DNA from: a virus
Lineage: Duplodnaviria; Caudoviricetes
Direction: 5' to 3' (one strand)
IMG/VR virus record: IMGVR_UViG_3300025930_000004
Location: 1 to 53,472 of that record
Length of the DNA: 53,472 nucleotides
The notes under the pieces were generated by a model. The model saw only the letters and a list, made by a program, of their open reading frames with translations, was not told the origin of the DNA and searched no databases. A program made the translations under genes and the position numbers. Positions 13,649 through 52,857 of this stretch are shown here, one piece after another; the first letter of the stretch is position 1; the number at the start of each line of letters is the position of its first letter.

Positions 13649-13896
13649 TGAGCCGCCGTCGCTTCCTGTCCCGCCTCCTGCGCTTTCTGCCTGCTGTGGC
13701 CGCTGCGCCGTTGGCACAATTCACGCCGCCTGAGCGTGAGCCGCAGACGCCGGAACAAAAGCGGCTGGACAAGGCAGAGGGGCAAATCTTTTACTTGCTC
13801 GATTCAGACCGCCGCCAGAATGGACGGCTGGACAGGATTGAACAGAAATTGCCGACGATGGACCCGTTTGGGCGCTACCGAAAGAAAACGATGTGA
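13645..13896 (+). CDS. Small protein with twin-arginine-like N-terminus and coiled coil
   Basis: MMSRRRFLSRLLRFLPAVAAAP. Confidence 0.6.
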   Translation: MMSRRRFLSRLLRFLPAVAAAPLAQFTPPEREPQTPEQKRLDKAEGQIFYLLDSDRRQNGRLDRIEQKLPTMDPFGRYRKKTM

Positions 13897-15242
13897 TGCA
13901 GCCGGTTAATCAGCTTATTGACCTGGATGACTACGAAGGTCATCCAAGAAACTATAACCGCCATCCTGACCAGCAGATACAGCGCATCATGGCCAGCCTG
14001 CGCAAGTTCGGCCAGCCTCGCAGTATCGTAGTGCATCGGGGTCAATTCCTGGCCGGTCATGGGGTGGCGGAAGCGGCCAGGCGGCTGGGCTGGAAGCAAT
14101 TGCGGGCTGACGTGCTGCCTGATGACTACCCCGAACACCTGGCGCTGGCCTATGTGGTGGCAGACAATGAACTGAGTAGACAGAGCGACCCAGACCAGGC
14201 GGCGCTTGCGGCCATCTTGCAGGAGGTGGGCCGGGTTGATGCGGAGTTGGTAGAGGCGGCGGGCTTTGGCAAGAAAGAGTTAGCGGATTTGTTGGCGAGT
14301 TTGACGCCGCCGCAATTGACCGTTGCCGACCCTGGCGCACAAACAGACCGAGCCGAGGAGCTACAAGAAAAGTGGGAGACGGCAGACAACCAGCTATGGC
14401 GCATCGGGGAACATTTCGTTATCTGTGGCGATTGCCGTTCCCCTGACACCTGGGGCCGGTTACTTGATGCGGCTGATGTGGAGAAAGTCAACGGCGTGTT
14501 TACCTCACCACCCTACGCAGAACAGCGCAAAGAACAGTACGGGGGCATTCCGACCGCTGAGTATGTAGATTGGTGGGAAGCGGTGCAGGCGAATGTACGG
14601 GGCAATTTGGCCGGGGATGGGTCATTCTTTGTGAATATCAAGCCGCACTGCGAGGATGGGCAACGGGCGCTTTACGTGATGGACTTAGTAACGGCAATGG
14701 TAAGGCGCTGGGGCTGGCGGTATGTGGAGGAGGCTTGTTGGGTGCATCAAGGCTTCCCAGGTGAACCGCAACAAAGATTCCAAAATGCTTTTGAGCCAAT
14801 CTATATGTTCTCTCAAGGCAAGGTCAAGTTTTGCCCTGAGAATGTAGCTTATGAGAGTGATTCGGTAATGCAGTATGAGCCGGGATTGAATGTTAGGCAA
14901 CGCCAACGCTCTACCGGCGAATTAACGCCAATGGCAAACGTAAAACACAGTAAGGGTAAAGCCTACCCAAGAAATGTATTGCAGATAAGCAGTGCAACCG
15001 CCGATGTGCCGGAACACGCCGCCGCCTTCCCCGTCGCCCTGCCCGATTTCTTCATCCGTGCTTATTCCGATCCCGGTGACGTGTGGTGCGATCCGTTCCT
15101 GGGCAGCGGCACAACCATTGTAGCGGCCCACCAGAACAAGCGGCGGGGGCTGGGGATTGAGAAGTTGCCTAAATATGTAGCGGTCATTCTTGAAAGGCTG
15201 CAAGCGGTCGTGGGCCAATCGCCCGAACTAATGGATGGTTGA
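13893..15242 (+). CDS. ParB-like N-domain fused to N4/N6 DNA methyltransferase (beta class)
   Basis: HPRNYNRH..LAGHG..ADNE; TSPPY; HAAAFP; DPFLGSGTT. Confidence 0.9.
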   Translation: MMQPVNQLIDLDDYEGHPRNYNRHPDQQIQRIMASLRKFGQPRSIVVHRGQFLAGHGVAEAARRLGWKQLRADVLPDDYPEHLALAYVVADNELSRQSDPDQAALAAILQEVGRVDAELVEAAGFGKKELADLLASLTPPQLTVADPGAQTDRAEELQEKWETADNQLWRIGEHFVICGDCRSPDTWGRLLDAADVEKVNGVFTSPPYAEQRKEQYGGIPTAEYVDWWEAVQANVRGNLAGDGSFFVNIKPHCEDGQRALYVMDLVTAMVRRWGWRYVEEACWVHQGFPGEPQQRFQNAFEPIYMFSQGKVKFCPENVAYESDSVMQYEPGLNVRQRQRSTGELTPMANVKHSKGKAYPRNVLQISSATADVPEHAAAFPVALPDFFIRAYSDPGDVWCDPFLGSGTTIVAAHQNKRRGLGIEKLPKYVAVILERLQAVVGQSPELMDG

Positions 15243-15247
15243 ACATC

Positions 15248-15721
15248 ATGGCGCTGAACAATGCACAAGACGCCATCATTGACGACCGCCGCCGCCTGGT
15301 TGCATCGCTCATTCTGCGCAAGCGCACGCAGCGGGAGGTTGTGACTGCGCTGACTATACAAGGCTATCGCAACCCAGACACCGGCGAACCGTGGAGCCTT
15401 GCCACCGTCAATGCCGATGTGCAGGCGCTACGCAGGCAATGGCGCAAAGAGGCAAGGCAGGATACAGCCGAACACAAGACTCGCCAGTTTGCCGAGTTGA
15501 ACGAGGTGATGAAGCAAGGGTGGGTAGACAACGATTTGAATGCGGTGTTGCGGGCGATGAAACAGCAGGCGGAATTGCTGGGGCTGGATGCGCCGACCGA
15601 GGAGGATCAGTTCGTTGTGGGCATGACATTGCCGGAATGGGAGAAGCGCCAAGCGACCAGCCGCCAGCAGGCAGCCGAGACGATGGAATTGTTTGACGAT
15701 GAGTTGGACACCGAGGACTAA
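15248..15721 (+). CDS. Putative terminase small subunit
   Basis: HTH-like TVNADVQALR and AELLGLDAP motif; directly upstream of the large subunit. Confidence 0.7.
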   Translation: MALNNAQDAIIDDRRRLVASLILRKRTQREVVTALTIQGYRNPDTGEPWSLATVNADVQALRRQWRKEARQDTAEHKTRQFAELNEVMKQGWVDNDLNAVLRAMKQQAELLGLDAPTEEDQFVVGMTLPEWEKRQATSRQQAAETMELFDDELDTED

Positions 15722-18452
15722 ACGCTGTGCGTTCCTTATCGACAACCTTGACTTGCCAACGGCCACAGGCTACCCGGCGGCGGTGTGGGAGGGGTTTCAG
15801 ATAAGGCACCTTGAAGATGACAGCACATTCCGAGCCGAGGTCAAGAGCCGCCAGATTGCCTGGTCGTGGCTCAGTGCAGCGGAAGCGGTAGCGGTGGGTC
15901 TGCTGAACAGAGAAAGCAGCGTCTTTATCAGCATCAATTTAGACGAGGCGAAAGAGAAGATACGCTACGTCCACAATGTCATTGACGGTCTACCCCGCTC
16001 TATGCGGCCTAGACTGGTGACAAATAACAGAACCGAACTGGAATTCGACAACGGCGCCCGCCTGATGAGCTTACCGGCCATTCCGCCCAGAGGCAAGGCG
16101 CAGATGAACGTATACCTTGATGAGTTTGCGCACGTCAGAGAGGATAACGTGATATACACCGCAGCCCTACCGATGATTACAAAAGGCAACCGGCGGCTGA
16201 GGATGGCCAGCTCACCGATGGGGGCAAGCGGGCGATTCTGGGAGGTATTTAAGGAATCACTCAGGAAGTATCCCGGCTACACCCGCAAGTCGACGCCGTG
16301 GTGGGAGGTACAGGCGTTTTGTCTGGACGTGCGAGAAGCCAGGAAACAGGGCGGCGTGCTGACTACCGAACAGATGGTCGAACAATACGGCAATGAGCGG
16401 GTGAAAGCCATCTACGCCAATATGCCGATAGAAGATTTTATGCAGGAGTATTGTTGTCACCTGGCGAGTACAGAGGTGATGCTGGCGAATGGACTCACAA
16501 AACGGTTCATTGATTTAGATATTGGCGACCAGTTAGTGTATAATAATGGTTGTCAAGTCTCACCATGCACCGTTGAGGAGTTCAGGAGAATTGGAATGCG
16601 CAGCATCATCGAGATCACAATGGAGACAGGGGCAACCTTCGCAGCGAGTACAGGGCACAAGATGAAAGGTAGGCAGGGTAAAGAGCCTATCGACACAATA
16701 GAGGAGGTTAGCTATGTTTTTGCGCCTCACCGTGTTGATGGGGAGCAAGAGGCGCTTGCTCGTCTTGTGGGGATGAATTTGGGCGACGGAACGATAGCGC
16801 AACGCGCCGGACGATACAAGAAAAAGAGTGGCGAGGTGAGCCTGTATCCTTACTTCCAGGCGTCCTTTTACTCTCAGAAGCAAGAGGACTTAGAAGACGT
16901 TGCAAGTGATTTTGTCATGGCGGGATTGGCAGAAACAAAACCCAACGTGCTTTTCAAAAAGGGTAGCAGACTGGAATACGACGCCTTTCAATTGCATGTT
17001 TCCCAGAAGGCGGCGCAGCGACTGGTTGATGCTGGCTGCGTGGTGGGGAAGAAGATAGCGACGGATTTTGCTATTCCTGATTGGATTCTAAACGGAGGGC
17101 CGACTGTCAAGCGTGAGTTTTTGGCTGCATTGTTTGGCGCTGAAGGCTCTACGCCGCGAGACAAGAATCAAAAACAAAAAAACAAGTTGCCACAAACACT
17201 TTATCTGAGGATGTTCAAAACCGAGCCGATGCCCCGTTTCTTCGAGCAGGTGCAGGGGATGTTGCAGGAGTTCGGCGTACAGTCGACCTTGACCAGCCGA
17301 CAATTAGATGGGCGTGTGAGCTATTCGATCATGGTTCACTCGACAGCAGAAAACGCTTTGGTGTTTTGGAGAAACGTGGGCTATCGCTATGCGCGGCGCA
17401 AGGAGGAAATGGCGTTTCTGTGGTCTCACTATCTGCAAGCCTATCAGCACGAAAGAGTCATGCGCAAGCAAGAGGCGACCGCATTGCGGGCTGGTGGATT
17501 GACCTACAAAGCGATGGCCGATCATCTGGGCATTAGCGCGCAAGGGGCATATAACCTGACGAACAAGCCGATCATGCGCTCATCGTGGGACTTTCCACAG
17601 TTCGGTGAGTGGGTCGGCACTCGCTATCAAGATGGCACGCTCTACATTCGAGTAACAGACCGGCGCGTGATTGGCGAAGATGAGGTTTTTAATATCAGGG
17701 TCGACTCGCCTGATCACTCCTATTTGTTGGCAGATGGGCTCGACAATTACAACTGCTTATTCGTTGATGAAACCACCGCTTGGATTACCTGGGAGGAAAT
17801 CAAGGAAGCGCAGGCGCTGGTGCCCGACCTGGCCTGCTACCTGGCCAAAGCCACCGGCACGTTGACGCCGGAGATACACGAAGCCATTGAACACTTGCGG
17901 CGGGGGATAGCCGTCAGTCGCACAGAGCAAGCCTATACCGTAGGGGTGGACATTGGGCGCACCCGCAACACCACAGAGATATACGCCATTGGCTTGACCA
18001 CCACAGACACCTACCCGCTGAGGCTGGCGCTATCGCTGGATAACGTGACCTTTGACGACCAGCTATCGGTAATTGTGGAAGTGTTGGACCGGCTGCCAGT
18101 GGTGAGCATGATGATTGACGAAACCGGCATCGGGCGCAACCTGGCAGAGAACGCAGAGAAGTATCACCCGGCCAAAGTACAGGGCGTGACGTTCACCGGG
18201 CCGCTAAAGGCACTGTGGGCGACCAATGCGAAGATGCTGATACAGGGACACAAAACGCCGTTGCCAGTGGATAAAGACATGGCCTATCAGTTCCACAGCA
18301 TCAAAAAGCTGGTGACCGCCAGCCGTAACTTGGCATTTGATACAGCGACGAATGAGAAGCACCACGCCGACAAGTTTTGGGCCTGGGCGTTGGCACTAGC
18401 CGGGGCTCATGATGGACAGGGCGGCGGCGGCTTTGTGTTGAGGTATGCGTGA
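15699..18452 (+). CDS. terL: Terminase large subunit containing an intein
   Basis: KSRQIAWS Walker A, YLDEFAH Walker B, SSPMG, GVDIGR, IDETGIG and HHADKFWA nuclease motifs. Confidence 0.95.
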   Translation: MSWTPRTKRCAFLIDNLDLPTATGYPAAVWEGFQIRHLEDDSTFRAEVKSRQIAWSWLSAAEAVAVGLLNRESSVFISINLDEAKEKIRYVHNVIDGLPRSMRPRLVTNNRTELEFDNGARLMSLPAIPPRGKAQMNVYLDEFAHVREDNVIYTAALPMITKGNRRLRMASSPMGASGRFWEVFKESLRKYPGYTRKSTPWWEVQAFCLDVREARKQGGVLTTEQMVEQYGNERVKAIYANMPIEDFMQEYCCHLASTEVMLANGLTKRFIDLDIGDQLVYNNGCQVSPCTVEEFRRIGMRSIIEITMETGATFAASTGHKMKGRQGKEPIDTIEEVSYVFAPHRVDGEQEALARLVGMNLGDGTIAQRAGRYKKKSGEVSLYPYFQASFYSQKQEDLEDVASDFVMAGLAETKPNVLFKKGSRLEYDAFQLHVSQKAAQRLVDAGCVVGKKIATDFAIPDWILNGGPTVKREFLAALFGAEGSTPRDKNQKQKNKLPQTLYLRMFKTEPMPRFFEQVQGMLQEFGVQSTLTSRQLDGRVSYSIMVHSTAENALVFWRNVGYRYARRKEEMAFLWSHYLQAYQHERVMRKQEATALRAGGLTYKAMADHLGISAQGAYNLTNKPIMRSSWDFPQFGEWVGTRYQDGTLYIRVTDRRVIGEDEVFNIRVDSPDHSYLLADGLDNYNCLFVDETTAWITWEEIKEAQALVPDLACYLAKATGTLTPEIHEAIEHLRRGIAVSRTEQAYTVGVDIGRTRNTTEIYAIGLTTTDTYPLRLALSLDNVTFDDQLSVIVEVLDRLPVVSMMIDETGIGRNLAENAEKYHPAKVQGVTFTGPLKALWATNAKMLIQGHKTPLPVDKDMAYQFHSIKKLVTASRNLAFDTATNEKHHADKFWAWALALAGAHDGQGGGGFVLRYA
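16455..17753 (+). mobile_element. Intein (433 aa) with LAGLIDADG homing endonuclease
   Basis: QEYC|CHLASTEVMLANG ... ASTGHK ... VFNIRV..HSYLLADGLDNYN|CLF; LVGMNLGDG and FLAALFGAEGS. Confidence 0.9.
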
Positions 18453-18586: not shown

Positions 18587-18759
18587 TTATCGGGCTCACT
18601 CTGGGCCTCGTCTGGATAGCCTTGCAGCGTAGAGCGCCAGAGCCTACTCGCTGGATGGTGAGCGTGGAGCCGGCGAGTAGGCCCGCAGGGTGGGGCTGGG
18701 TGGGGCTGTTTCTGCTTGTTGACTTGATTGTATTGGCGTGGGTATGGATGGGAGCGTAA
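18571..18759 (+). CDS. Small two-TM protein
   Basis: 62 aa with two hydrophobic segments; TAATG coupling to next gene. Confidence 0.6.
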   Translation: MSWPLIIGLTLGLVWIALQRRAPEPTRWMVSVEPASRPAGWGWVGLFLLVDLIVLAWVWMGA

Positions 18760-19835
18760 TGAATCCATTGGCTCGTTTGTCTACAGCAACGACCGCTTTG
18801 GCGGAAGCAAAAAATCTGGACGACATTTTGCCGATCTTGAATCTGGCCGACGCCGCCCGCACGTATGCCAAAGCCGCCAAGCTAGGGCTAGAAGCGCAAA
18901 ACCACGCTGCCGAAATTCAGTTGAGAGCGGCACGCAAGGCGGGCCAAATCTTGCAGACGATGAAAAAGAACGGTGAATTAGATAAAGGCGGTCGGCCTTC
19001 AGAAAACCGATCACGTCTTGTTATCGGTTTGTCTGATCTCGGTGTCAAACCTATGCAGTCTCACCGTTGGCAAAAGGTGGCCGATGTGCCCGAAGAATTA
19101 TTCGAGACGCAGATCGCCACAGTGCCCGCACAGGGGAAGGAGTTGACTACCGCCGGTATGTTGAAAATTGCCAAAGCCAGTGAGCGAAACGGAAAGCCTG
19201 ACGCCATGGGGTCGGGCGACGGCTCTTTCGACTTGCTCCACAGCCCAATCGAGTCGCTTATCCTGCCCGCCGATTCCGTGGATGCCATTGTCACCGACCC
19301 ACCTTATCCGCAAGAGTATTTGCCGCTTTTCTCTGTGCTTTCCGATTTGGCAGCGCACGTGCTGAAGCCGGGCGGCTCTTTGTTTGTCATGGTTGGTCAA
19401 TCCTATCTACCAGAGGTGATTTGCCGACTCTCCGAGAAAATGTGCTATCACTGGACGCTTGCCTATATGACACCCGGGGGACAAGCGGTGCAACTATGGC
19501 AACGCAAAGTAAACACCTTTTGGAAGCCGATCCTTTGGTTCACCAAAGGCGACTATACCGGCTCGTGGCTGGGCGATGTAGCTAACAGCAAAGTCAACGA
19601 CAACGACAAGCGATTCCACGGCTGGGGTCAGTCGGAAAGCGGGATGATTGATTTGCTGCAACGATGCAGCGAGCCGCTTCAGACAATTCTCGATCCGTTC
19701 TGTGGTGGTGGTGCGACTGGTGTAGCGGCGCTTGCAACCGGACGTCATTTTATCGGGGCCGACAAAGAGGCTGAGTGTATCGAGACTTGTCGCTCTCGCC
19801 TGGTGGGAATGAGCCATGCAGACGTACAGCATTGA
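18759..19835 (+). CDS. DNA methyltransferase with helical N-terminal domain
   Basis: VTDPPY; HGWGQS; LDPFCGGGATG. Confidence 0.9.
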   Translation: MNPLARLSTATTALAEAKNLDDILPILNLADAARTYAKAAKLGLEAQNHAAEIQLRAARKAGQILQTMKKNGELDKGGRPSENRSRLVIGLSDLGVKPMQSHRWQKVADVPEELFETQIATVPAQGKELTTAGMLKIAKASERNGKPDAMGSGDGSFDLLHSPIESLILPADSVDAIVTDPPYPQEYLPLFSVLSDLAAHVLKPGGSLFVMVGQSYLPEVICRLSEKMCYHWTLAYMTPGGQAVQLWQRKVNTFWKPILWFTKGDYTGSWLGDVANSKVNDNDKRFHGWGQSESGMIDLLQRCSEPLQTILDPFCGGGATGVAALATGRHFIGADKEAECIETCRSRLVGMSHADVQH

Positions 19836-20879: not shown

Positions 20880-21124
20880 AAGCATCAAAGCGCAGATTGG
20901 TGATGTTGGACCGCAAGGGCAAGTTGAAGGCACGCACGGACTTACCACGCAAGGCACCCGGCGCACGGCGCGCACGGCGGCAAATGCTGGCTGATGAGAA
21001 GAATACAATCCTTGTCACAACCGGGGGTGAAATCATAGGCAAAGACGAGATTGTATCTTGCGATTCGGAAAAGGTGACATTCCTACACCATGCGCCGGTC
21101 ATATTTGGCACACAGGAACAATAA
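20876..21124 (+). CDS. Hypothetical basic protein
   Basis: Coupled on both sides (ATGA, TAATG). Confidence 0.6.
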   Translation: MKASKRRLVMLDRKGKLKARTDLPRKAPGARRARRQMLADEKNTILVTTGGEIIGKDEIVSCDSEKVTFLHHAPVIFGTQEQ

Positions 21125-22566
21125 TGGCAATCAACCTGGCTGAGATGGCTTTTCTCTCCTGGCAAGCGGCTGAGGAGATGACCGTACAAAAGGACATCGT
21201 AACCGCCCGCAATTACTACGATGGCGAGCAGAACGCCATGCTCACCGCCCGCCTGCGGGAATTCCTCAACGTGCAAGGCGACCAGGAATTCAATCTCAAC
21301 GTCTGCCGCACAGTCGTGGAGGTCGTTGAGGAACGCCTACTGATGACCGGCGTTGACAGCAACGAGCAGGGCGAGGCCAAGCCCGTCGCAGCCTGGGCCG
21401 ATGACCTATTCGACCAGCAGAAGCTGGCCATCAACCAGAGCGCCGTACATGAGGGGGCGCTGCGTGATGGCCAATCCTTTGTGCTGGTGGATTGGGATGC
21501 AGACAACCAGCGCCCTAGATTCACTCCACACCCACGCTACGCCTGCGCAGAGGCGGGCGGCGATGAATTCGGCTGTAAGGCCCACTACCCCGACGATGAC
21601 CCATCCCAGCCTCTTCTGTGCGTCTCCAAGCGGTGGGTTGAGAAGCTAGACACAAAGGGCAAAACCCGTAAGCGTATGACCATTTACTACCCTGACCGGG
21701 TAGAGAAATACGAATCGGTTGGGTCTGATTGGGTGCAGTTTCGAGACGAGGGCGACACGTCCTGGCCTATCCCGTGGGTAGACAAGGCCGGTAAGCCGTT
21801 GGGAATCACGGCAATTCATTTTCCCAATACGCTCACCCTGCGCAGTGAGATTCGAGATGCCATCCCGGTGCAGAACGCCATCAACAAATCAGTGATTGAC
21901 TTGCTGGGCGCTGCTGATGTAGCAGGCTTTCGGATTTTCTTTGCAAGGGGCTGGATACCCACTACTGACGGGCTGGCGCTAAAAGACGACAAAAGCAACC
22001 AAGCCAAAATACAGCCGGGCAGTATTCTGGGCACCGCCAAAACAGACGCATCGTTTGATGCCATTGACGGGAGCGACCTGAGCCAATCAATCAATGTGGT
22101 TGAGGCATTTCTTGGTCAGCTCTGCGTAGTGACCAGCACGCCCGCCAGCCGAGTAACATTTAACAAACAGGTAGCGGCAGAGGGCACGCAAAAAGAACAG
22201 AAAGAGGGCTTGTTCGCCAAGACTCGCAAGCGCCAAATGCTCTATAATAACTCGTGGATAGAATGCTTCAACATGGCACGCCGTCTCGCCAATACGTTTG
22301 GCAATGCTGGCCTTGATGAGAAGCCCGCATTTGTCATGCGCTGGGAGCCCATACAGGCCAGGGACACAGCCACAGAGCAGAACGGATGGAAGGTCAAGAA
22401 AGAAATCGGCGTGCCCCTAGAGACTTTGCTTGGCGAAATGGGGTATTCGCCGGAGGAAATTGACGCCATCAAAGCCACCGACGAGTGGAAAGCCCGCATG
22501 GGCATGATGCAGACCGGGCTGGCGGTGAATCAGGCGGCGGTGACGAATGACGGAGCCGATGGCTAA
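21124..22566 (+). CDS. Portal protein (SPP1 gp6-like)
   Basis: NYYDGEQ, NVCRTVVE, ALRDGQSFVLV, QNAINK; 480 aa; position after terL. Confidence 0.9.
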   Translation: MAINLAEMAFLSWQAAEEMTVQKDIVTARNYYDGEQNAMLTARLREFLNVQGDQEFNLNVCRTVVEVVEERLLMTGVDSNEQGEAKPVAAWADDLFDQQKLAINQSAVHEGALRDGQSFVLVDWDADNQRPRFTPHPRYACAEAGGDEFGCKAHYPDDDPSQPLLCVSKRWVEKLDTKGKTRKRMTIYYPDRVEKYESVGSDWVQFRDEGDTSWPIPWVDKAGKPLGITAIHFPNTLTLRSEIRDAIPVQNAINKSVIDLLGAADVAGFRIFFARGWIPTTDGLALKDDKSNQAKIQPGSILGTAKTDASFDAIDGSDLSQSINVVEAFLGQLCVVTSTPASRVTFNKQVAAEGTQKEQKEGLFAKTRKRQMLYNNSWIECFNMARRLANTFGNAGLDEKPAFVMRWEPIQARDTATEQNGWKVKKEIGVPLETLLGEMGYSPEEIDAIKATDEWKARMGMMQTGLAVNQAAVTNDGADG

Positions 22567-22813
22567 CGACCACGACCGGGCCGTGAGAACAACGGTTTGG
22601 TATCAAGTATTGGCCTTTGATGAGGCTACGGGTACATTCAAAAGCCCGAAGGTTCCCTGTCGTATCCCCGGTAAAGAGGGTGAAATGGTTGAGTTAAAGC
22701 CGGGGCCATACGACACACCAGAGAGAGCGATCAACGATATGGAATGGTACGCTCAAGCCGCAAATTGCAAAATCACATTTGTTGTAATGCCGGTTTACAC
22801 TGCACATGGCTGA
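22559..22813 (+). CDS. Inserted hypothetical gene (moron-like)
   Basis: Starts MANDHDRAVR, resembling the start of the next gene. Confidence 0.6.
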   Translation: MANDHDRAVRTTVWYQVLAFDEATGTFKSPKVPCRIPGKEGEMVELKPGPYDTPERAINDMEWYAQAANCKITFVVMPVYTAHG

Positions 22814-23603
22814 TGAGCATGGGCGGGCGGTGCGATTAGCCCTGCGCACCAGCGCCGAACTGAAGCGCCTATTCGACAAGCTGGGCAACGCCGACCATCC
22901 CAATGGGCGCATACTGTCCGCCTATCGCCAGGCCCGCCGTGCGCTCAAGGGCAATATCGCCAATCAGATGGTCGTGCTGGACGTGTTGCGGGAGTTGCGC
23001 CGCTCTGTTGAGGAGACGACCAGAACGCAACTGGTTGAGGCCAGAGATATGGGCATCAAACAGGCGACCATCGAACTGGCCGTCTATGGCCTACCCAATA
23101 GCGCCGCCGTTGCGCTGCCTATCGCTGAACTTGGCGCTGTGCTGGCCGTCTACGATGCGCAGGCTGCCAACGTGCGAGGGCTGGCGCTACAGGGTGACGA
23201 GGCCATGATTTTGGGTGACGAAACCAGAGTTGGGGCGCTGGGGCCGGGCGTGGTTACCAGAGAGACGACCAAATGGCTGGCCGTGGCTGCCGTCAGCGCC
23301 TGGTCAAGAGTGACGACCGACAACGTAAGCCGGGTGAGCGGACAAGAGGACTTTCTGAGGCAGGCTGTAGCGGCGGTGGACAAGCGGACAACGGATTGCT
23401 GCCTGCGAGTCAATGGCCAGGTGGTGGCGCTGGATGAACCGTTCCACCTGACTGGTACACCACGCTACGCAGATGACCAGTTCTCACCACCTTTTCACCC
23501 TGCATGCCGAACAGCGCAGGCGCTGGTCAGGCGGGCTGATATGGGCGACGATGTAACGCAGCGGCTGAGGGCGACGGCTAAGGCTGAGTTGGGGAGGCGG
23601 TAG
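22806..23603 (+). CDS. Minor head protein (MuF / SPP1 gp7-like)
   Basis: DKRTTDCCLRVNGQ..F..PPFHPACRT. Confidence 0.85.
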   Translation: MADEHGRAVRLALRTSAELKRLFDKLGNADHPNGRILSAYRQARRALKGNIANQMVVLDVLRELRRSVEETTRTQLVEARDMGIKQATIELAVYGLPNSAAVALPIAELGAVLAVYDAQAANVRGLALQGDEAMILGDETRVGALGPGVVTRETTKWLAVAAVSAWSRVTTDNVSRVSGQEDFLRQAVAAVDKRTTDCCLRVNGQVVALDEPFHLTGTPRYADDQFSPPFHPACRTAQALVRRADMGDDVTQRLRATAKAELGRR

Positions 23604-23828
23604 GTGGATACTCCAGACAAGCCGGGGTGGTGGTGGTTTAGGGGAACACTGAGACACAATGTCACCAGAAGGCGTGTAGACGTTGATCGGCCCTGTCATG
23701 TTGCTGCCAAAAAATACAAGCGGGATAAGCCCCCGTTTATCGTTGCCATTTTTGACGATGTGTACGAGGCAAGCGAATTCGACGGTAAGTGGTGGCATAT
23801 TGAGCCGCCAGCGGAACCAGCACCATGA
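23604..23828 (+). CDS. Hypothetical protein
   Basis: PDKPGWWWFR..W..IEPP; GGAGG RBS. Confidence 0.6.
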   Translation: MDTPDKPGWWWFRGTLRHNVTRRRVDVDRPCHVAAKKYKRDKPPFIVAIFDDVYEASEFDGKWWHIEPPAEPAP

Positions 23829-24025
23829 ACAATCCTACCCTATTGACGACACAGAACACATATGCTACGATAGAGCAGCCGGACACCGTACAGATGAGCC
23901 GGGCCGAGGTAAAGCGCATTCACGATCTGGCGCTGGCCGTGGCGCAGATGTGCAGGGGGATTCTAGGGTGGGAGCCGATACCAACCAGGGCAACAGAGCG
24001 CCGGACGCCGAGGACGGAACGGTAA
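23825..24025 (+). CDS. Hypothetical protein
   Basis: ATGA overlap; 66 aa. Confidence 0.5.
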   Translation: MNNPTLLTTQNTYATIEQPDTVQMSRAEVKRIHDLALAVAQMCRGILGWEPIPTRATERRTPRTER

Positions 24026-24260
24026 TAGACGTTAGGCTTTTGGCGAAAGCAATAATAGAGACCGCTACATTCACGACTATCGACAATCAGGACGGCACTT
24101 ATAAGCATTCATTTACATTTGCGACAGACCCGCCTATTGCGGGGAGCGTTACAACTCGTGAGCGTTCACTTACTCCGCAGATTTTGCAATCGATAGGGCA
24201 GAGACTTAGCGAACTGATAAAATAACCGAATAACCCGCCCAACCAAGTTACTATCTTTTG

Positions 24261-24307
24261 ACAGGCGACCTTCAGCCATAACCGGCTGATAGTCGCCTGT
24301 TTTTTTA
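24261..24307 (+). terminator. Intrinsic terminator upstream of head genes
   Basis: ACAGGCGAC..TCAGCC / GGCTGA..GTCGCCTGT followed by a T-run. Confidence 0.75.
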
Positions 24308-24329
24308 TTGGTTTTTTCCGAGGTGCGCA

Positions 24330-24398
24330 ATGGATGAATACGGACGCCCAGCCACACAGAAGGGCGACAAAAAGAATCCATTTCCATTTAACCGCTGA
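24330..24398 (+). CDS. 22-aa peptide resembling a major capsid protein segment
   Basis: GAGGTG RBS; MDEYGRPATQKGDKKNPFPFNR versus MCP VDEYGRAPTQKAKPGDTGGFPLK. Confidence 0.55.
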   Translation: MDEYGRPATQKGDKKNPFPFNR

Positions 24399-24426
24399 AC
24401 TTATCGAGTAAAGGAAGGAAGGCGAG

Positions 24427-25035
24427 ATGCCTATCAGGAATTTATGGCGTGATGCCATTTTGTTTGACAACGAAGGCGCCGGGGGATCTGGCGACGATAG
24501 CGGCAATGAGCAGGGCGGCAGCGAGACGCAGACGCCAGAACAGCTTAAAGCCGAGTTGGAACAGGTACGCAAGGCACTGAAATTAGCCAACAAAGAGGCG
24601 CAGGACAGACGCAAGCGGCTAGATGAAATCGACGCCGCCGAGAAAGAGCGTCAGACCAAAGACCTTTCCGAGCTAGACCAGCTTAGAAAGAAGTTCGAGG
24701 AATCCGAGCGCAAGGCGCAGGAACTGGCGCAGCGCCAGCGGGAAAGCGCAATTCGTCACGCCGTTGAGATGGCGGCAACGAATAGCCGTTTCCATGACCC
24801 GCTAGACGCCTACCGGCAGGCCGACTTGTCAGGGATAGAGGTTGATGACCAGGGCACTGTAAGCGGCGTAGATGCTGCGATCAAGGCACTTGTCAGCAAA
24901 AAGCCCTACCTGATTAAGCCAGAATCCGGCGGCGGCGACATCAACGCAAGCGCCCGTGGGCGGTCTACAGCGCCAAGTATTGACGAGGTGGTCGCCCAGA
25001 AGCGGGCCACCGACCCTATGTATATACCATTCTAG
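24427..25035 (+). CDS. Capsid scaffolding protein
   Basis: Acidic flexible N-terminus, coiled coil, KKPYL motif; position before head genes. Confidence 0.85.
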   Translation: MPIRNLWRDAILFDNEGAGGSGDDSGNEQGGSETQTPEQLKAELEQVRKALKLANKEAQDRRKRLDEIDAAEKERQTKDLSELDQLRKKFEESERKAQELAQRQRESAIRHAVEMAATNSRFHDPLDAYRQADLSGIEVDDQGTVSGVDAAIKALVSKKPYLIKPESGGGDINASARGRSTAPSIDEVVAQKRATDPMYIPF

Positions 25036-25043
25036 GAGTATCT

Positions 25044-25445
25044 ATGGCACTCGTAACTCGTGCGACAACCGCCAGTCTGGACGCATCGACCGGCATGTAC
25101 GCACCGCAAATTACCGGCCTTATTGCCGGGGAGGATTTGGACGTGGCCGCCCCCTGCTACATCAAAACCAGCGACGGCAAGGTCTACATGTCCAACGGCA
25201 CAGCCGCCACCGAACCGGCTGAAATCGTCGGCTTTACGCCAAGAGCGGTCAAGTCCACCCAGCCCTGCACCCTGATTGGCAAGGGCGCACGGTTCAGCTA
25301 TGGCACCGGCTTGACGATTGGCGACAAGTTGTACATTGGCGCCACCGCTGGCCGTCTGGACACCGCCGCCACCACTGGCGATGCTCTGGGCGTGGCCCAG
25401 GTCATCACGGCTACCGACATCCGCATCACGCGGGATAGTTTCTAG
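25044..25445 (+). CDS. Head decoration / cement protein
   Basis: AGEDL..GDKLYIGATAGRL; between scaffold and MCP. Confidence 0.75.
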   Translation: MALVTRATTASLDASTGMYAPQITGLIAGEDLDVAAPCYIKTSDGKVYMSNGTAATEPAEIVGFTPRAVKSTQPCTLIGKGARFSYGTGLTIGDKLYIGATAGRLDTAATTGDALGVAQVITATDIRITRDSF

Positions 25446-25457
25446 GAGAGATGAGAA

Positions 25458-26510
25458 ATGACTACAGGCACACATGATATTTCGACTCTCCTGGCGTCCC
25501 GCAACACTTCCGTTGCCGATTTCGGCATGGAAAACATTGTTCCGGTACTTCAGAAAGAGCTTGCAGCGCACAACCAGATCGTGACCACCCTGGTCAACGA
25601 CCTGGCCGAGTTCACCACCGACCGCCAGCGCAAGTATGGCATTTCGGTGGCGGGCGATATGTACGAAGTTGACGAGTACGGACGGGCGCCTACTCAGAAG
25701 GCCAAGCCGGGGGACACCGGCGGCTTCCCGCTGAAACTGTTTCAGTACGCTTTGGGCTGGACCGCCAAATGGTTCGACCTGCACACGCCCGCTGATATGG
25801 TCATTGCGACCCAGGCGGCGGAGCGGGCGCACCTGCGCATGATTCAGCGGGAAATCAAACGGGCATTCTATACCGAGGCCAACTACACCTGGAATGATTT
25901 CCTGGTGGACGGTGTGGACATTGCCGTCAAGCGGCTGGTCAACGCCGACAGCGCATCCATTCCCGAAGGCCCGAACAACGAAACCTTTGACGGCGCAACC
26001 CACACCCACTACATCGGGGAGGCCAGCCTTACCGCTGCCTTCCTGCAATCCTGGATCAACGACCTTGTGGAGCATGGGCAGGGGAACAACGTCAAGATTG
26101 CCATCAGCACCACCGATGAGGCGGCTGTACGTGCCCTGACCGGCTTCACTGCCTACACCGACCCTCGCCTGATTCAGCCCAACACCGCCGTACTCGCCAC
26201 TACGCCGCTGGATACCACCCGACTGAACAATCGGGCGATTGGTGTGTTTGGCGGCGCTGAGGTGTGGGTCAAGAGTTGGGCCATCGCCAACTACGTTTTC
26301 ATCTGGGACGCTGGCAGCCCCAAGCCGCTGGTCATTCGCCAGCGCAGCGCCACGTCAATGCAGGGTCTGCGCATCGCAGGCGAGAACCGGGCCTATCCGC
26401 TCCTGGCGCAGTTTATGGAAGCGGAGTTTGGCGTTGCTGTGTGGAATCGCACAAACGGTGTTGTCGGATATTTTGCCAACGCCACTTATTCGAGCCCAAC
26501 GATCACCTAG
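25458..26510 (+). CDS. Major capsid protein
   Basis: 350 aa, strong codon bias, position; C-terminal EFGVAVWNR. Confidence 0.85.
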   Translation: MTTGTHDISTLLASRNTSVADFGMENIVPVLQKELAAHNQIVTTLVNDLAEFTTDRQRKYGISVAGDMYEVDEYGRAPTQKAKPGDTGGFPLKLFQYALGWTAKWFDLHTPADMVIATQAAERAHLRMIQREIKRAFYTEANYTWNDFLVDGVDIAVKRLVNADSASIPEGPNNETFDGATHTHYIGEASLTAAFLQSWINDLVEHGQGNNVKIAISTTDEAAVRALTGFTAYTDPRLIQPNTAVLATTPLDTTRLNNRAIGVFGGAEVWVKSWAIANYVFIWDAGSPKPLVIRQRSATSMQGLRIAGENRAYPLLAQFMEAEFGVAVWNRTNGVVGYFANATYSSPTIT

Positions 26511-26853: not shown

Positions 26854-27237
26854 ATGGCCTTTACTTACGCACTTGGCAGCAGCGACCCTGACACCCTAGC
26901 CCTATCCAGGGTGCGCCTTGAGTTGGGCGACCAGGTTGAAGGTAACGGCGTGCTGCCAAGTGGCGCCAACCTGCAGGACGAGGAAATCGGCTTTTACCTG
27001 ACCCTCAACGCTAATGACATTGCAGTCACGGTCGCAGCCCTGGCGGGTGTTCTCTCTCGCCAGTGGGCCGGGGCCGCTGACGTGCAGGTTGGGCCACGCA
27101 GGGAGAGCCTTAGCCAGGTCAGCGCACGCTGGGCAACCATCGCAGGCGACCAGGCGACAGCCGATTCTCTGGATGGCGGCTCATCGTTCGTGACCACGCT
27201 TGGCCGGGTGGATGGGTATACACCCAATGGCACTTGA
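26854..27237 (+). CDS. Head-tail adaptor
   Basis: VRLELGD..LQDEEI motif; position. Confidence 0.75.
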   Translation: MAFTYALGSSDPDTLALSRVRLELGDQVEGNGVLPSGANLQDEEIGFYLTLNANDIAVTVAALAGVLSRQWAGAADVQVGPRRESLSQVSARWATIAGDQATADSLDGGSSFVTTLGRVDGYTPNGT

Positions 27238-27637
27238 CATTTACGAGTATGTGGGCGGCCAGATTCGCACACTGCGCGAGCAGATGGGGATCACTCAGAA
27301 GTCAATGGCGAAAGCGATTGGCGTCAGCGCCAATACTGTTTCCAGGTGGGAGACGGCGACCTACAAGCTAAGTGTCAAGGACTTGCAGACCGTCGCTCAA
27401 TTCTTCGGCGTGCCTATGTCGGCCATGTTTCCAGATTCGCCAAAACCTGACGATGGGGAAGCGAAGCCAGTTCGAGAAGAAGGATTGATCATGCTGCGTG
27501 AAATCAGATGGCACCTCCGGCAATTGTTGCCCTTGACCTACCGCTCGCACTACGAAGACGGTCAGGGTAAGCGACATTTCTGTGTTTGGAATATGTGGCT
27601 CGGAAAGTGCTTCAACGTCGAGGATGTGATCGTTTAA
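27227..27637 (+). CDS. XRE-family HTH protein inserted in the head-tail module
   Basis: GQIRTLREQMGITQKSMAKAIGVSANTVSRWE. Confidence 0.85.
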   Translation: MALDIYEYVGGQIRTLREQMGITQKSMAKAIGVSANTVSRWETATYKLSVKDLQTVAQFFGVPMSAMFPDSPKPDDGEAKPVREEGLIMLREIRWHLRQLLPLTYRSHYEDGQGKRHFCVWNMWLGKCFNVEDVIV

Positions 27638-38100: not shown

Positions 38101-38562
38101 GTCGGCGCATCCGGCAACAATCTGCAACTCAATCATTCGACTGTGACCGGCTCGGCTAATAAGTGGATTTTGGTCGCCATCGGGCAGCCGTTCGTAGCCA
38201 CCGCGACGGCTGCATTCAGCGGCACGCCGTTGACAGGTATTCGCCCGGTCACCGTGGCCTTCACCGATGCGTCAACAGCAGACGGCACGACGATTACCAG
38301 CCGGGCTTGGGATTTTGGCGACGGGTCCACCAGCACCAGCACCAATCCTACCCACGAGTACACCACAGCCGGCAGCTACAGCGTGACCCTGACGGTCAGC
38401 GACGGCACGGCCACCAGCACGCTTGTCAAGTCCGATTACGTGGTAATCAGTGACCCACCGGACGCCACATTGCCGGTTACGTCGCTGGTGCTGGCAAGCG
38501 CCATTCCTGAACCGTTGCAGCCGTACAACGATGTCCTAGCAAGTGCGGAGGTGGTCCCGTGA
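35179..38562 (+). CDS. Tailspike-like protein: beta-helix domain plus C-terminal PKD domain
   Basis: YVHP..G.G....PWNTL..PGDIIRLRG; xxN ladders; WDFGDGSTSTSTNPTHEYTTAGSYSVTLTV. Confidence 0.85.
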   Translation: MTIRYVHPGTGANTGAGGTGAPWNTLGYAVGGASATAPGDIIRLRGTTYTERVVFGVSGTAGNPITIEADTGYSPTIEGISTQTGIIVMPNGTKYITFGDGITVSYGHAAPGGNHRFSLVAVTGVDSEFVTILNLTVHRDYSTDLSVLAASVWQEFGITITDATDCTVDSCTVRGICKGINLNDQCMRATVKNCLTEYTVQSGCVIGSSAGVIRGIVIYRNRFGLSGREDGLQFIPPNGLTDAQKAADDSNQGTLLLYNEIFFNGEGGFDMKSTKHVVIEGNILHGMAGSNDGFHPTLGQNTGSPGCINAGANTNSEAPVIFRNNIFYDCQSGPSTRIGWKFHNNTILNMRRTWEGTPEPLAKGVGIGQARSSNPALGVRNNIFAGNAADAELFAGQNQPGNECDLDYNLYASGAWSDATSGNTYTTLAAWQGRLAANNWRYGKDGHSIYVGGATPTARHNAIKFVSVTAYPTGDPDDYDFGIADDSPAKGTGGYLCRITGGAGSGTAVPVEDANWFATNYGRDDYQDDQRIFFNGQERTITAVNYATNTLTINATATWGNLEPIYHVFPGQVASATPDIGALNYLEADGGGTPPPPTAGGPGGRASVRGALITTTGNQTFTFATPLTGQPIAWRFTITEATADDNATDNAVIGRGWAWDNGGTIVQHAWSTRSRHGQATSATSGRTITDGCLMLNNPTSTAIDGQASFVSGDANGVTINITDAFSAGFLVTITAFMATNAYFSTFAIQQTVNTYTTVTPGFTPNYIEVVTFNRAIPATTGGVRISHGFATYDGATITQQCMYIGERTTSAPSEVVAHLRNDYVGIEATDGAAALTNGLQISDMGSTDFRINTKVANHTQTDAEGFVFCLLFDQEVYSGVITTPTATNSAYDYAVGFEPGSADVIASTLTAVNTADSTGLAGAYAAGSWDGTLQFSASIADEDAAATTNTQSRSDDRFVNLDKHDGSAGHIATVVGASGNNLQLNHSTVTGSANKWILVAIGQPFVATATAAFSGTPLTGIRPVTVAFTDASTADGTTITSRAWDFGDGSTSTSTNPTHEYTTAGSYSVTLTVSDGTATSTLVKSDYVVISDPPDATLPVTSLVLASAIPEPLQPYNDVLASAEVVP

Positions 38563-39269
38563 TACAGGGTGAGGGCTATACGCTATATCAGGGCGATTGT
38601 CTCAACGTGTTGCCGACCTTTCGGGATCGGCAATTTGACCTTGCTTTGACCGATCCGCCCTATGGCATAGGCGAATCAGCAGCACGAGTTGCGTCGCGAG
38701 TGAACCTCGCGACGCCCATTGATTATGGTGCGTTCAGTTGGGACAGTGAACCGGCCTCACCTGTAGCCATAGAGCATATCCGGCGCATATCTCAGAAGCA
38801 AATTATCTTTGGTGGCAATTACTTTGACCTTCCACCGTCAAAATGCTGGCTTGTATGGGACAAGCTAAATAGTGGCGATTTTGCCGATTGCGAACTGGCT
38901 TGGACGAATCTTGACAAGGCTGTTCGCATCTTTCGCCATATGTGGAATGGCATGTTGCGGGCGTCCGAACGTGACTGCAGGCGAGTCCATCCAACACAAA
39001 AGCCCGTCGCCTTGATGCGCTGGTGCATCGAACAGGCTGGACACCCGCAAACCATCATTGACCCATATATGGGTTCTGGCTCTGTGGGTATAGCGACAAT
39101 CCAGAGCGGTATTCATTTTGTTGGCATCGAAAAGGATGCACGTTACTTCGCCATCGCCCACAAACGCATTGCGGACGCAGCCAGAGCCGTCGCAGGGCTA
39201 CCCAAGCAGTTATCGGGCCGGGTTGAGGATTACAGCGAAAGCCCGCTATTCGCAGGAGTAACACCGTGA
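38559..39269 (+). CDS. N4/N6 DNA methyltransferase inserted in the tail module
   Basis: LYQGDCL, LTDPPYG, HPTQKPVALM, DPYMGSGS. Confidence 0.92.
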   Translation: MIQGEGYTLYQGDCLNVLPTFRDRQFDLALTDPPYGIGESAARVASRVNLATPIDYGAFSWDSEPASPVAIEHIRRISQKQIIFGGNYFDLPPSKCWLVWDKLNSGDFADCELAWTNLDKAVRIFRHMWNGMLRASERDCRRVHPTQKPVALMRWCIEQAGHPQTIIDPYMGSGSVGIATIQSGIHFVGIEKDARYFAIAHKRIADAARAVAGLPKQLSGRVEDYSESPLFAGVTP

Positions 39270-51840: not shown

Positions 51841-52857
51841 CTATTCGTATCGGCGTGTCCAGGGCAGATGTAGCCTACCCGCTGCCTCTTTCTTCGCCCG
51901 TTCGCCTCGTCGGTCGTATCCGGCGGTCGTGTTGGCGCTGGAGTGGCCCATCAGTTTTTGCACAGTCACCAGGTCCACGCCAGCATCTAGTAAGTCACCT
52001 GCGAAGGTGCGGCGCATGTCGTGCGGGCCAAACGCTTTGACGCCTGCCACTGCCGCCCGGCGCTGTACCATCTTCCAGACTGAGCCCGGCGTGATGGGCC
52101 GATTGATGATGTGCCCGTTGCGGACGGAGCGGAACAGCGGCCCGTCGCCGGAGCCTCGCACATGCAGCCAGTCGGCCATAATGTCGTCAACCGGCGTTGT
52201 GTAAAGCGTGCGCTGCTTTCGTCCTTTGCCGAACACGATCAGTTGGCTGATCTCCCGGCTGTAGTCGGCTAGTTCCAGGTTGGCGATTTCCGCCCTGCGC
52301 AGCCCGCAACAGACGCCCACGCCGATAATTGCCCCATCTCTGGGTCCGGCTGGGCCGGAGTCATCCCGGCAGGTATTCATCAGCGCCGCAATTTCTCCGC
52401 TGGTCAGCGCACGCCCGGCGGCCTGGTCTGGGCCTTCGCCTCGGATAGACGGCACTAGAAGCGCCCGCTGCATCGACTCTGCATCCATCAAGCCGAGTTT
52501 CCATGCTGCCGTCATCACGCCACGCAGCGCAGACATATACTTTCTGCCCGTCGCCGGGCTGTAGTGTTCGGTGAGCTTGGCACGGACAGCGTTGACGTGC
52601 TGCCATTTGAGTTGGTGCCACGGAATCGCCGCCGGGCTGCATTCGCCATTTGTCAGGATGGCGGCAATAACGCCCAACGCAGCGCCCATCGAGCGGCGTG
52701 ACGACTTGCCCAGCCCTGCAAGATAGGCCAGGGTCGGCTGTTCGGCTGCGTGGCTGCTGAGAACTGGCAGTAGCCGGTCGTTCGGTAGTATCTCTACATA
52801 CATTGTCGGAAGGACGGTGAACACGCAATTGACATCGAAACCAATATCCTGTACCAT
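51841..52857 (-). CDS. Tyrosine recombinase (integrase / XerC-like)
   Basis: GLRRAEI, GKGRKQR, HDMRRT, LMGHSSANTTAGYD; AAGGAG RBS. Confidence 0.93.
   Translation of the reverse strand: MVQDIGFDVNCVFTVLPTMYVEILPNDRLLPVLSSHAAEQPTLAYLAGLGKSSRRSMGAALGVIAAILTNGECSPAAIPWHQLKWQHVNAVRAKLTEHYSPATGRKYMSALRGVMTAAWKLGLMDAESMQRALLVPSIRGEGPDQAAGRALTSGEIAALMNTCRDDSGPAGPRDGAIIGVGVCCGLRRAEIANLELADYSREISQLIVFGKGRKQRTLYTTPVDDIMADWLHVRGSGDGPLFRSVRNGHIINRPITPGSVWKMVQRRAAVAGVKAFGPHDMRRTFAGDLLDAGVDLVTVQKLMGHSSANTTAGYDRRGERAKKEAAGRLHLPWTRRYE

Follow-up and report, generated by a model that had tools for sequence, protein, structure and literature searches.

Directly 5' of the head scaffolding gene of an uncultured phage lies an open reading frame (ORF) of 22 codons whose predicted product resembles a piece of the phage's own major capsid protein (MCP). 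Two questions follow: whether so short a frame is a gene at all, and whether the likeness to the MCP reflects kinship and function or is coincidental. They were addressed in virus record IMGVR_UViG_3300025930_000004; the window, meaning the whole stretch of DNA analysed, is the complete viral record of 53,472 base pairs (bp) with direct terminal repeats. Comparison with related sequences identifies the frame as a genuine protein-coding micro-gene, and modestly supports a relationship of its product, the micro-peptide, to the tip of the MCP E-loop. The micro-gene and its immediate surroundings are as follows.

24330-24398, + strand: micro-gene, 22 codons plus stop, with ATG start and TGA stop; product MDEYGRPATQKGDKKNPFPFNR
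24320-24325, + strand: Shine-Dalgarno-like GAGGTG, 4 nucleotides (nt) 5' of the ATG
24260-24301, + strand: intrinsic-terminator-like hairpin with a 10+6 bp stem, T7 run at 24300-24306, preceding the micro-gene
24427-25035, + strand: head scaffolding protein gene (PF06810, E = 1.6e-16; phrog_194 and phrog_4866)

A conserved micro-gene ahead of the scaffold gene

The hairpin at 24260-24306 ends the block of portal, MuF-like and 180-amino acid (aa) ORF (orf180) genes that precedes it. Folded within 24226-24330, it reaches -37.8 kcal/mol (z = -6.2), a value equalled by none of 200 shuffled sequences, and a simple pattern scan flags its inner stem at 24283-24295. A first-pass annotation of this DNA had described an ORF behind GAGGTG, between a terminator and the scaffold gene, and both the coordinates and the fold test agree with that description. 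The scaffold gene starts 28 nt past the micro-gene stop, and the two genes of the window lie in different frames. The encoded peptide is small, basic and lysine-rich. Gene finders miss the 22-codon ORF, and an Rfam scan of 24150-24500 returned no match at E <= 1.

In order to place the ORF in a comparative setting, 113 related loci (L001-L113) were fetched via their MCP from viral, metagenome and genome contigs. Besides the window, 25 of the 113 loci contained a syntenic small ORF recognised by a family hidden Markov model (HMM), 23 of them with complete copies and two with copies cut by the contig end. The matches have E-values of 1.6e-17 to 5.2e-13 in the window and the 23 loci, and of 4.9e-4 for the two cut copies. 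Once contigs fetched twice had been removed, 19 distinct contigs with 12 distinct peptides of 22-82 aa were left. The peptides share a conserved core of 20 residues with the motif [DE]-Y-G-R-P-x-T-x-K-G-x-K-N-x-[YF]-P-F, whereas the tails on either side of the core can be absent or reach about 55 residues, and the distance from the core to the stop codon ranges from 2 to about 55 residues. The micro-gene is present in every locus that includes DNA 5' of the scaffold gene and has an MCP at least 66% identical to that of the window. Loci with an MCP of 64% identity or less, some of which are short of upstream DNA, gave no match below E = 1 except to the MCPs themselves.

The reading frame is intact in every carrier with a complete copy. 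The ratio of non-synonymous to synonymous differences (pN/pS) is 0.09-0.69 and lies below 1 in 36 of 36 pairs, with pS at 0.43-1.22, so that synonymous sites are saturated. The first-pass annotation had suggested selection on the peptide and had named absence or frameshift in close relatives as the outcome that would speak against it; the gene is there, syntenic and intact, and the substitution pattern is that expected of a selected peptide. The flanking signals recur less uniformly. A GC-rich inverted repeat followed by a T-run was seen by eye 5' of the small ORF in 11 of the 12 distinct forms, the exception being L004. A Shine-Dalgarno-like purine run precedes the start in eight of the 12 (window, L015, L045, L041, L033, L009, L027 and L004), and no obvious run of this kind was found before the start in the L001, L010, L003 and L011 forms. 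The scaffold start follows 6-30 nt past the micro-gene throughout the family, apart from L004, in which the long ORF overlaps the scaffold start instead.

Searches of larger collections returned further small proteins of the same kind. Applied to 1.84 billion representative proteins, the family profile gave 15 matches at E <= 0.001, all of them 29-82 aa long and none fused to a larger protein. A word-indexed collection of 5.8 billion yielded 20 clusters labelled at most "hypothetical protein". Searches of Pfam, PHROGs and the PDB with the peptide or its relatives assigned it to no family and produced chance-level matches only (phrog_3198, E = 0.11; DUF4305, E = 0.29; PDB, E = 0.22-1.2).

In a quick maximum-likelihood IQ-TREE analysis of 83 MCPs, 11 carriers together with L016, in which the upstream DNA is missing, form one clade with an SH-like approximate likelihood ratio test support of 99. 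The sister rows L047-L049, L051 and L065 are without the micro-gene. Because the carriers form a single MCP clade whose sisters do not have the gene, the micro-gene is a single and fairly recent gain. On these sequence comparisons, the family is conserved, syntenic and confined to one clade; it is real, unannotated and previously undescribed.

The family includes some variants of form. Three long members, P0005 (encoded at L004:2685-2933), P0006 and P0013, measure 63-82 aa and share a second conserved part past the core, consisting of RKLL-x-P, a hydrophobic stretch and a G-W-D-F motif. The window peptide ends in FPFNR like the long forms and may be a truncated long form. In L015 the micro-gene (L015:1883-1960) is in frame with the scaffold gene (start L015:1967), with one TAG and 6 nt between them, and the same arrangement occurs in L039, L040 and L081. 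Read-through of the stop codon in this type would fuse micro-peptide and scaffold.

Contigs matching the window itself were found as well. Rhizosphere metagenome contigs from two other studies (X3 and X6) span the micro-gene region (24100-25500) with 0 differences, and those of two more runs, X7 and X8, leave the micro-gene ORF uncovered. The same phage strain thus recurs across samples, so these copies offer no sequence variation to analyse. A near-identity DNA search of phage GenBank records gave no match, and tblastn with the window MCP returned only distant actinophage MCPs of 24-28% identity.

Likeness of the micro-peptide to the E-loop tip

The part of the MCP that the micro-peptide resembles was located by structure prediction and by alignment to MCPs of known structure.

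25458-26510, + strand: MCP gene (phrog_3990, E = 7.7e-36)
25668-25736, + strand: MCP residues V71-K93, tip and descending arm of the E-loop, the segment resembled by the micro-peptide

The AlphaFold2 (AF2) model of the MCP has a mean predicted local distance difference test (pLDDT) value of 87.3 and an HK97 fold. Foldseek matched it to the MCPs of the Mycobacterium phages Adjutor (8saj, E = 1.5e-18) and Patience (8giu, E = 3.9e-18), and to HK97 itself at about 1e-7. A profile of the 83 MCPs searched against the PDB gave the same two structures (8saj, 4.8e-23; 8giu, 3e-18). Predicted fold and sequence profile together identify the window MCP as a Patience/Adjutor-like HK97-fold protein. In the model, the E-loop position, flanked by the N-arm helices on one side and the spine helix on the other, is taken up by residues 50-98, and E73 aligns with Glu93 of Patience, at the E-loop tip. 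The HMMER alignment behind this assignment reproduces the residue numbering of PMC11965321 at Thr70, Val73, Glu78, Glu85, Arg98, Arg148, Gln171, His198, His200 and Glu223. Among the 83 MCPs the tip motif is the best-conserved part of the loop, with D72, E73 and Q80 conserved in at least 90% and P91 invariant. The MCP segment matched by the peptide is thus the E-loop tip, and the earlier proposal that it corresponds to the HK97-fold E-loop can be narrowed to tip plus descending arm.

A separate feature of the MCP emerged from the alignment to Patience. Residues H182, H184, E205 and H206 of the window MCP align with Patience His198, His200, Glu223 and His224, which are described as a putative metal site in the available text of PMC11965321. 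In the 83 MCPs, H184 and E205 are invariant, and H182 and H206 are conserved in at least 90%.

In the window, eight of ten residues are identical between peptide D2-K11 and MCP D72-K81, as first reported, and the first 11 codons are identical at 23 of 33 nucleotides. Several shared residues use different synonymous codons, GAT/GAC, GAA/GAG, CGC/CGG and ACA/ACT, as the first-pass annotation had listed. The first 11 residues of the peptide match the tip motif V-D-E-Y-G-R-x-x-T-Q-K and are followed by an aromatic-Pro-hydrophobic triplet, in a gene of the same operon as the MCP. The FP pair noted earlier does follow in both proteins, though after six residues in the peptide and after eight in the MCP. 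The two products are otherwise of different kinds, the micro-peptide being free-standing, 22-82 aa long and without HK97 domains. The loop between the matching parts is two residues shorter than that of the MCP in the window and two residues longer in the L004 form.

The ungapped BLOSUM62 score of the match is 43, compared with 31.1 +/- 3.0 for shuffled peptides, and one of 300 shuffles reaches 43. The window holds 422 ORFs of 20-40 aa, however, so that one match at this level is to be expected, and within the window alone the likeness between peptide and MCP is not decisive. The relatives were brought in by an HMM built from 24 family members with the window peptide excluded, which was run against the 80 window ORFs of at least 50 aa. 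Its best match was to MCP residues 70-81 (E = 0.0037, 9.1 bits), with a runner-up at E = 1.5, and two of 300 shuffled proteomes reached 9.1 bits. A profile-profile comparison with hhalign paired peptide residues 1-20 with MCP 70-92, with a two-residue gap (P = 0.0088). Peptide family (n = 22) and MCP family (n = 83) share their majority residue at eight of 20 aligned positions, namely V, D, Y, G, R, T, K and P, and three further columns are conservative. On the MCP tree, the window and the L015 lineage have the peptide sequence DEYGR, as does the basal L045 lineage, whereas NDYAR and DDYHR are each confined to a single subclade. Because DEYGR occurs in three lineages and is identical to the MCP, the ancestral peptide was probably closer to the MCP than several of its descendants are.

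A number of observations weigh against kinship between peptide and tip. The test with the window left out is not independent of the original sighting, since relatives inherit the motif, and its E-value of 0.0037 within the proteome comes from a local match of 12 residues. The hhalign probability for the peptide-MCP pair is only 4.6%. The invariant or near-invariant peptide residues G12, N16 and F20 are absent from the MCP and, together with the mostly conserved P7, differ from the MCP majority. Identities with the phage's own MCP tip, which is unchanged, fall to four of ten in the L001 type and three of ten in the L009 type. No covariation of the peptide with the MCP is visible within the clade, because the MCP tip hardly varies there. 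Chance matches of the peptide family in the PDB, at 13-15 bits, are comparable or better, an example being 14.7 bits to an unrelated human peptide in a search of 177,635 sequences. The family profile returned no MCP at E <= 0.001 from the 1.84 billion representatives.

On a rival reading the micro-gene is real and the MCP likeness coincidental, the product being a small basic protein whose task has nothing to do with the E-loop. It might be a late-operon peptide that binds nucleic acids or has a regulatory function, or it might belong to the capsid module but act on another surface. Coincidence is a serious possibility, although short of an even one. Apart from the low hhalign probability, the number of small ORFs, the PDB matches, the three unshared residues and the eroded L001 and L009 types, it is favoured by the lysine- and proline-rich tails, which are like those of many non-specific basic peptides. 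Against coincidence, the HMM picked the MCP tip out of 80 ORFs, by a wide gap to the next match and with few shuffled proteomes equalling it; the shared consensus columns include the invariant R and P of the peptide; the matched segment belongs to the best-conserved stretch of the E-loop, in a same-operon gene 1 kb away; and the DEYGR deduced for the ancestor is identical to the MCP.

Taken together, the comparison modestly supports a true relationship of the peptide to the MCP E-loop tip, on a balance of evidence that is close to even and that falls short of statistically established homology. Within that relationship, the sequences point to origin as a copy of an MCP segment followed by partial drift as the most likely course. 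The eroded likeness of the L001 and L009 types speaks against selection for exact mimicry.

Proposed role and alternative explanations

The gene order of the capsid block is micro-gene, scaffold, decoration protein and MCP, with the micro-gene as first cistron. The best overall explanation, put forward tentatively, is a small basic accessory peptide of the capsid module that is related to the E-loop tip. The micro-gene arose once, in the ancestor of one clade of soil and rhizosphere temperate siphovirus-like phages, and according to this proposal its peptide would be made together with scaffold, decoration protein and MCP. The motif resembling the E-loop tip would bind the surface of the capsid lattice that normally receives the tip, on a neighbouring MCP or on a decoration trimer, during assembly or in the finished shell. 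The peptide would then act as a small assembly or stabilisation accessory. Short segments docking on or beside E-loops are known to brace HK97 lattices, and a free peptide with the tip motif could bind the tip-receiving surface. Some capsid-related role is fairly probable, whereas binding at the E-loop site in particular, suggested by position, composition and precedent, is conceivable rather than likely. A complex prediction of the L001 MCP with its 41-aa small protein scored 0.00 in both runs, with the partner's own fold uncertain, and counts neither way.

A narrower version of the proposal is that the peptide, as a free copy of the phage's own E-loop tip, plugs in trans those tip sites that are unreached or miss their tip, or caps unassembled subunits against premature association. 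Candidate sites would be the portal vertex, or the chasm of Patience-type split hexamers, in which two of six E-loops over-stretch. This version is doubtful. If true, it would represent a new principle, in which a fragment of the MCP gene has given rise to a self-mimicking peptide through which the capsid is assembled or stabilised.

The closest analogue in role is gp4, a small capsid accessory protein of the Mycobacterium phages Patience (102 aa) and Adjutor (54 aa). The available text of PMC11965321 describes gp4 as a random coil when unbound, with a length that varies with genome size. It fills the chasm of split hexamers, hydrogen-bonds the E-loops of two chains and folds its C-terminus over the E-loop. 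Like gp4, the micro-peptide family consists of small proteins of variable length (22-82 aa) in phages with a Patience-like MCP, and both are basic and lysine-rich. However, Adjutor gp4 is encoded by gene 4, far from the MCP gene 17, whereas the micro-gene lies inside the capsid block. Moreover, gp4 forms a helix in the capsid, unlike an E-loop. Homology of the two was rejected (hhalign P = 0.52, no BLASTP alignment, family HMM score -0.2 bits), and a lysine-rich likeness to Adjutor gp4 seen by eye was supported by no program. A tblastn search of the window with Adjutor gp4 found no homologue (best E = 0.94). The comparison with gp4 is accordingly an analogy of role only.

A second precedent is provided by the decoration proteins of P74-26, with its Dec-arm, and of lambda (gpD), whose arms pair with E-loops according to the excerpted account in PMC6775164. 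The arms described there, short and extended, dock onto the outside of the E-loop region and make the lattice more stable, and the window likewise encodes a decoration protein beside its MCP.

25044-25445, + strand: capsid decoration (cement) protein, 133 aa (AF2 pLDDT 93.6, Foldseek)

The predicted structure of this protein matched the decoration chains of HFTV1 (8qsy, E = 2e-4), Sf11, Pam3 and T1, and further the Adjutor minor capsid protein (8saj_1, E = 0.043) and lambda gpD/SHP, which identifies it, at the level of the model, as a capsid decoration protein of the gpD/TW1 class. The decoration arms differ from the micro-peptide in that they belong to a folded trimeric protein and, in the account cited, pair with the E-loop but do not resemble it, whereas the micro-peptide is a separate gene product. 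That the micro-peptide is itself a trimeric decoration protein of the gpD/TW1 type was discarded, since it has 22 aa instead of the folded, beta-rich domain of about 100-150 aa typical of such proteins, and the adjoining 133-aa protein fills the role.

Besides coincidence, three other explanations were weighed. Leader cistrons and translationally coupled upstream ORFs sit immediately 5' of a strongly expressed gene, separated from it by a short gap or overlapping it. The micro-gene could be a cis-acting element of this kind: its translation, just 3' of the terminator hairpin, would open up the scaffold gene for translation or be coupled to it, while the peptide itself would matter little. The small ORF is always directly 5' of the scaffold start, with a gap of 6-30 nt or, in L004, an overlap, and in the L015 type it is even in frame with the scaffold gene. 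Proline-rich stretches slow ribosomes, and such stretches are found in the family, with PPPPP in L009, P0007, P0011 and P0016. The strong purifying selection, however, acts on the amino acids of the N-terminal core and not on the C-terminal end, where the tails vary. A stalling or attenuation peptide has its critical residues at a fixed distance from the stall site, and the variable core-to-stop distance does not fit this. For the same reason, and with no Rfam element in 24150-24500, the ORF was rejected as a regulatory leader peptide or attenuator upstream ORF. The scaffold gene also has its own purine-rich ribosome-binding site. A role in cis is thus improbable.

An anti-defence decoy, which would imitate the exposed E-loop tip of the MCP and occupy a host immune sensor that recognises capsids, had been raised by the first-pass annotation and is less probable still. 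Its appeal is that bacterial defences can be set off by capsid proteins, and even by a short peptide from inside an MCP: the available text of PMC9712102 reports activation of CapRel SJ46 by the MCP of SECPhi27, and activation of the Lit protease by the Gol peptide within Gp23 of T4. The micro-gene is in addition a clade-specific addition, as is typical of accessory genes. Gol resembles the micro-peptide in being a short internal MCP segment active on its own, but in the excerpts of that source it is not separately encoded by the phage and triggers host defence rather than serving as a phage tool. In this known case the free trigger peptide activates the sensor and does not block it. The micro-gene lies inside the late capsid operon and not among early or anti-defence genes, and the phage is uncultured, with no host or defence system known. 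An abstract-level literature search found no description of a capsid-mimicking decoy, an E-loop-mimicking peptide or such a small phage structural gene.

The last alternative, a chance open frame in an intergenic spacer, has the short ORF length of 22 codons in its favour and is scarcely tenable, as it is already contradicted by the comparative data, that is by a core kept in 12 distinct forms whose synonymous sites are saturated, with pN/pS below 1 in all 36 pairs, by the intact frame of all complete copies, and by independent gene callers having predicted homologues in public databases.

Genome context and meaning

The wider genome looks like that of a temperate siphovirus. It encodes a large terminase, a tape-measure protein and three DNA methyltransferases, together with the following genes.

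21058-22566: portal protein
22806-23603: MuF-like head protein
23683-24225: 180-aa ORF (orf180) with no named function, preceding the terminator hairpin
51844-52857, minus strand: integrase

The order of the head genes is like that of Adjutor, which has MuF, gp15, minor capsid protein and MCP in the same succession, and the 133-aa decoration protein occupies the gene position of Adjutor gp16. Homologues of the decoration protein in the related loci measure 122-322 aa, some with an extra C-terminal domain. A link between the presence of the micro-gene and the length of the decoration protein was sought and not found, as carriers have 132-133 and 306 aa and many non-carriers 131-135 aa.

Several other genes of the window were noted in addition. 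The large-terminase ORF (15693-18449, + strand) encodes 919 aa, with an ATPase-like part at about 30-260 and a nuclease-like part at about 750-903; the approximately 490 residues between the two are without PHROG match and could be an inserted domain or an intein. The DNA methyltransferase-like genes lie at 13893-15239, 18738-19832 and 38559-39266, all on the + strand. The first has a ParB-like part fused at its N-terminus, and the third stands inside the tail gene block. A helix-turn-helix repressor-like ORF (27200-27634, + strand), which matches 13 PHROG families of transcriptional regulators and repressors, is located just 3' of the MCP among head-tail connector genes. Regarding the wider phage group, two of the related loci, L005 and L006, are genome contigs with an MCP of 53-54% identity in metagenome-assembled genomes labelled Ardenticatenaceae and Anaerolineae (Chloroflexota). 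They are without the micro-gene and hint at the host range of the group.

Only recently have small accessory peptides, exemplified by gp4 of Patience and Adjutor, been recognised in HK97-type capsids; gene-calling programs usually overlook them. The micro-gene adds an unannotated, conserved family of 22-82 aa with a fixed place in the capsid operon, in a clade of soil phages with an MCP of the structural family to which that of the gp4 phages also belongs. Should the likeness to the E-loop prove coincidental, the family would still provide a validated micro-gene for phage annotation. The mimicry idea is an attractive hypothesis with modest support. If the likeness is functional, a fragment of 60-70 nt from a structural gene can give rise to a new gene, and a virus can tune the contacts of its lattice with a peptide copy of its own contact loop, a principle of possible use in controlling the assembly of HK97-type nanocontainers.

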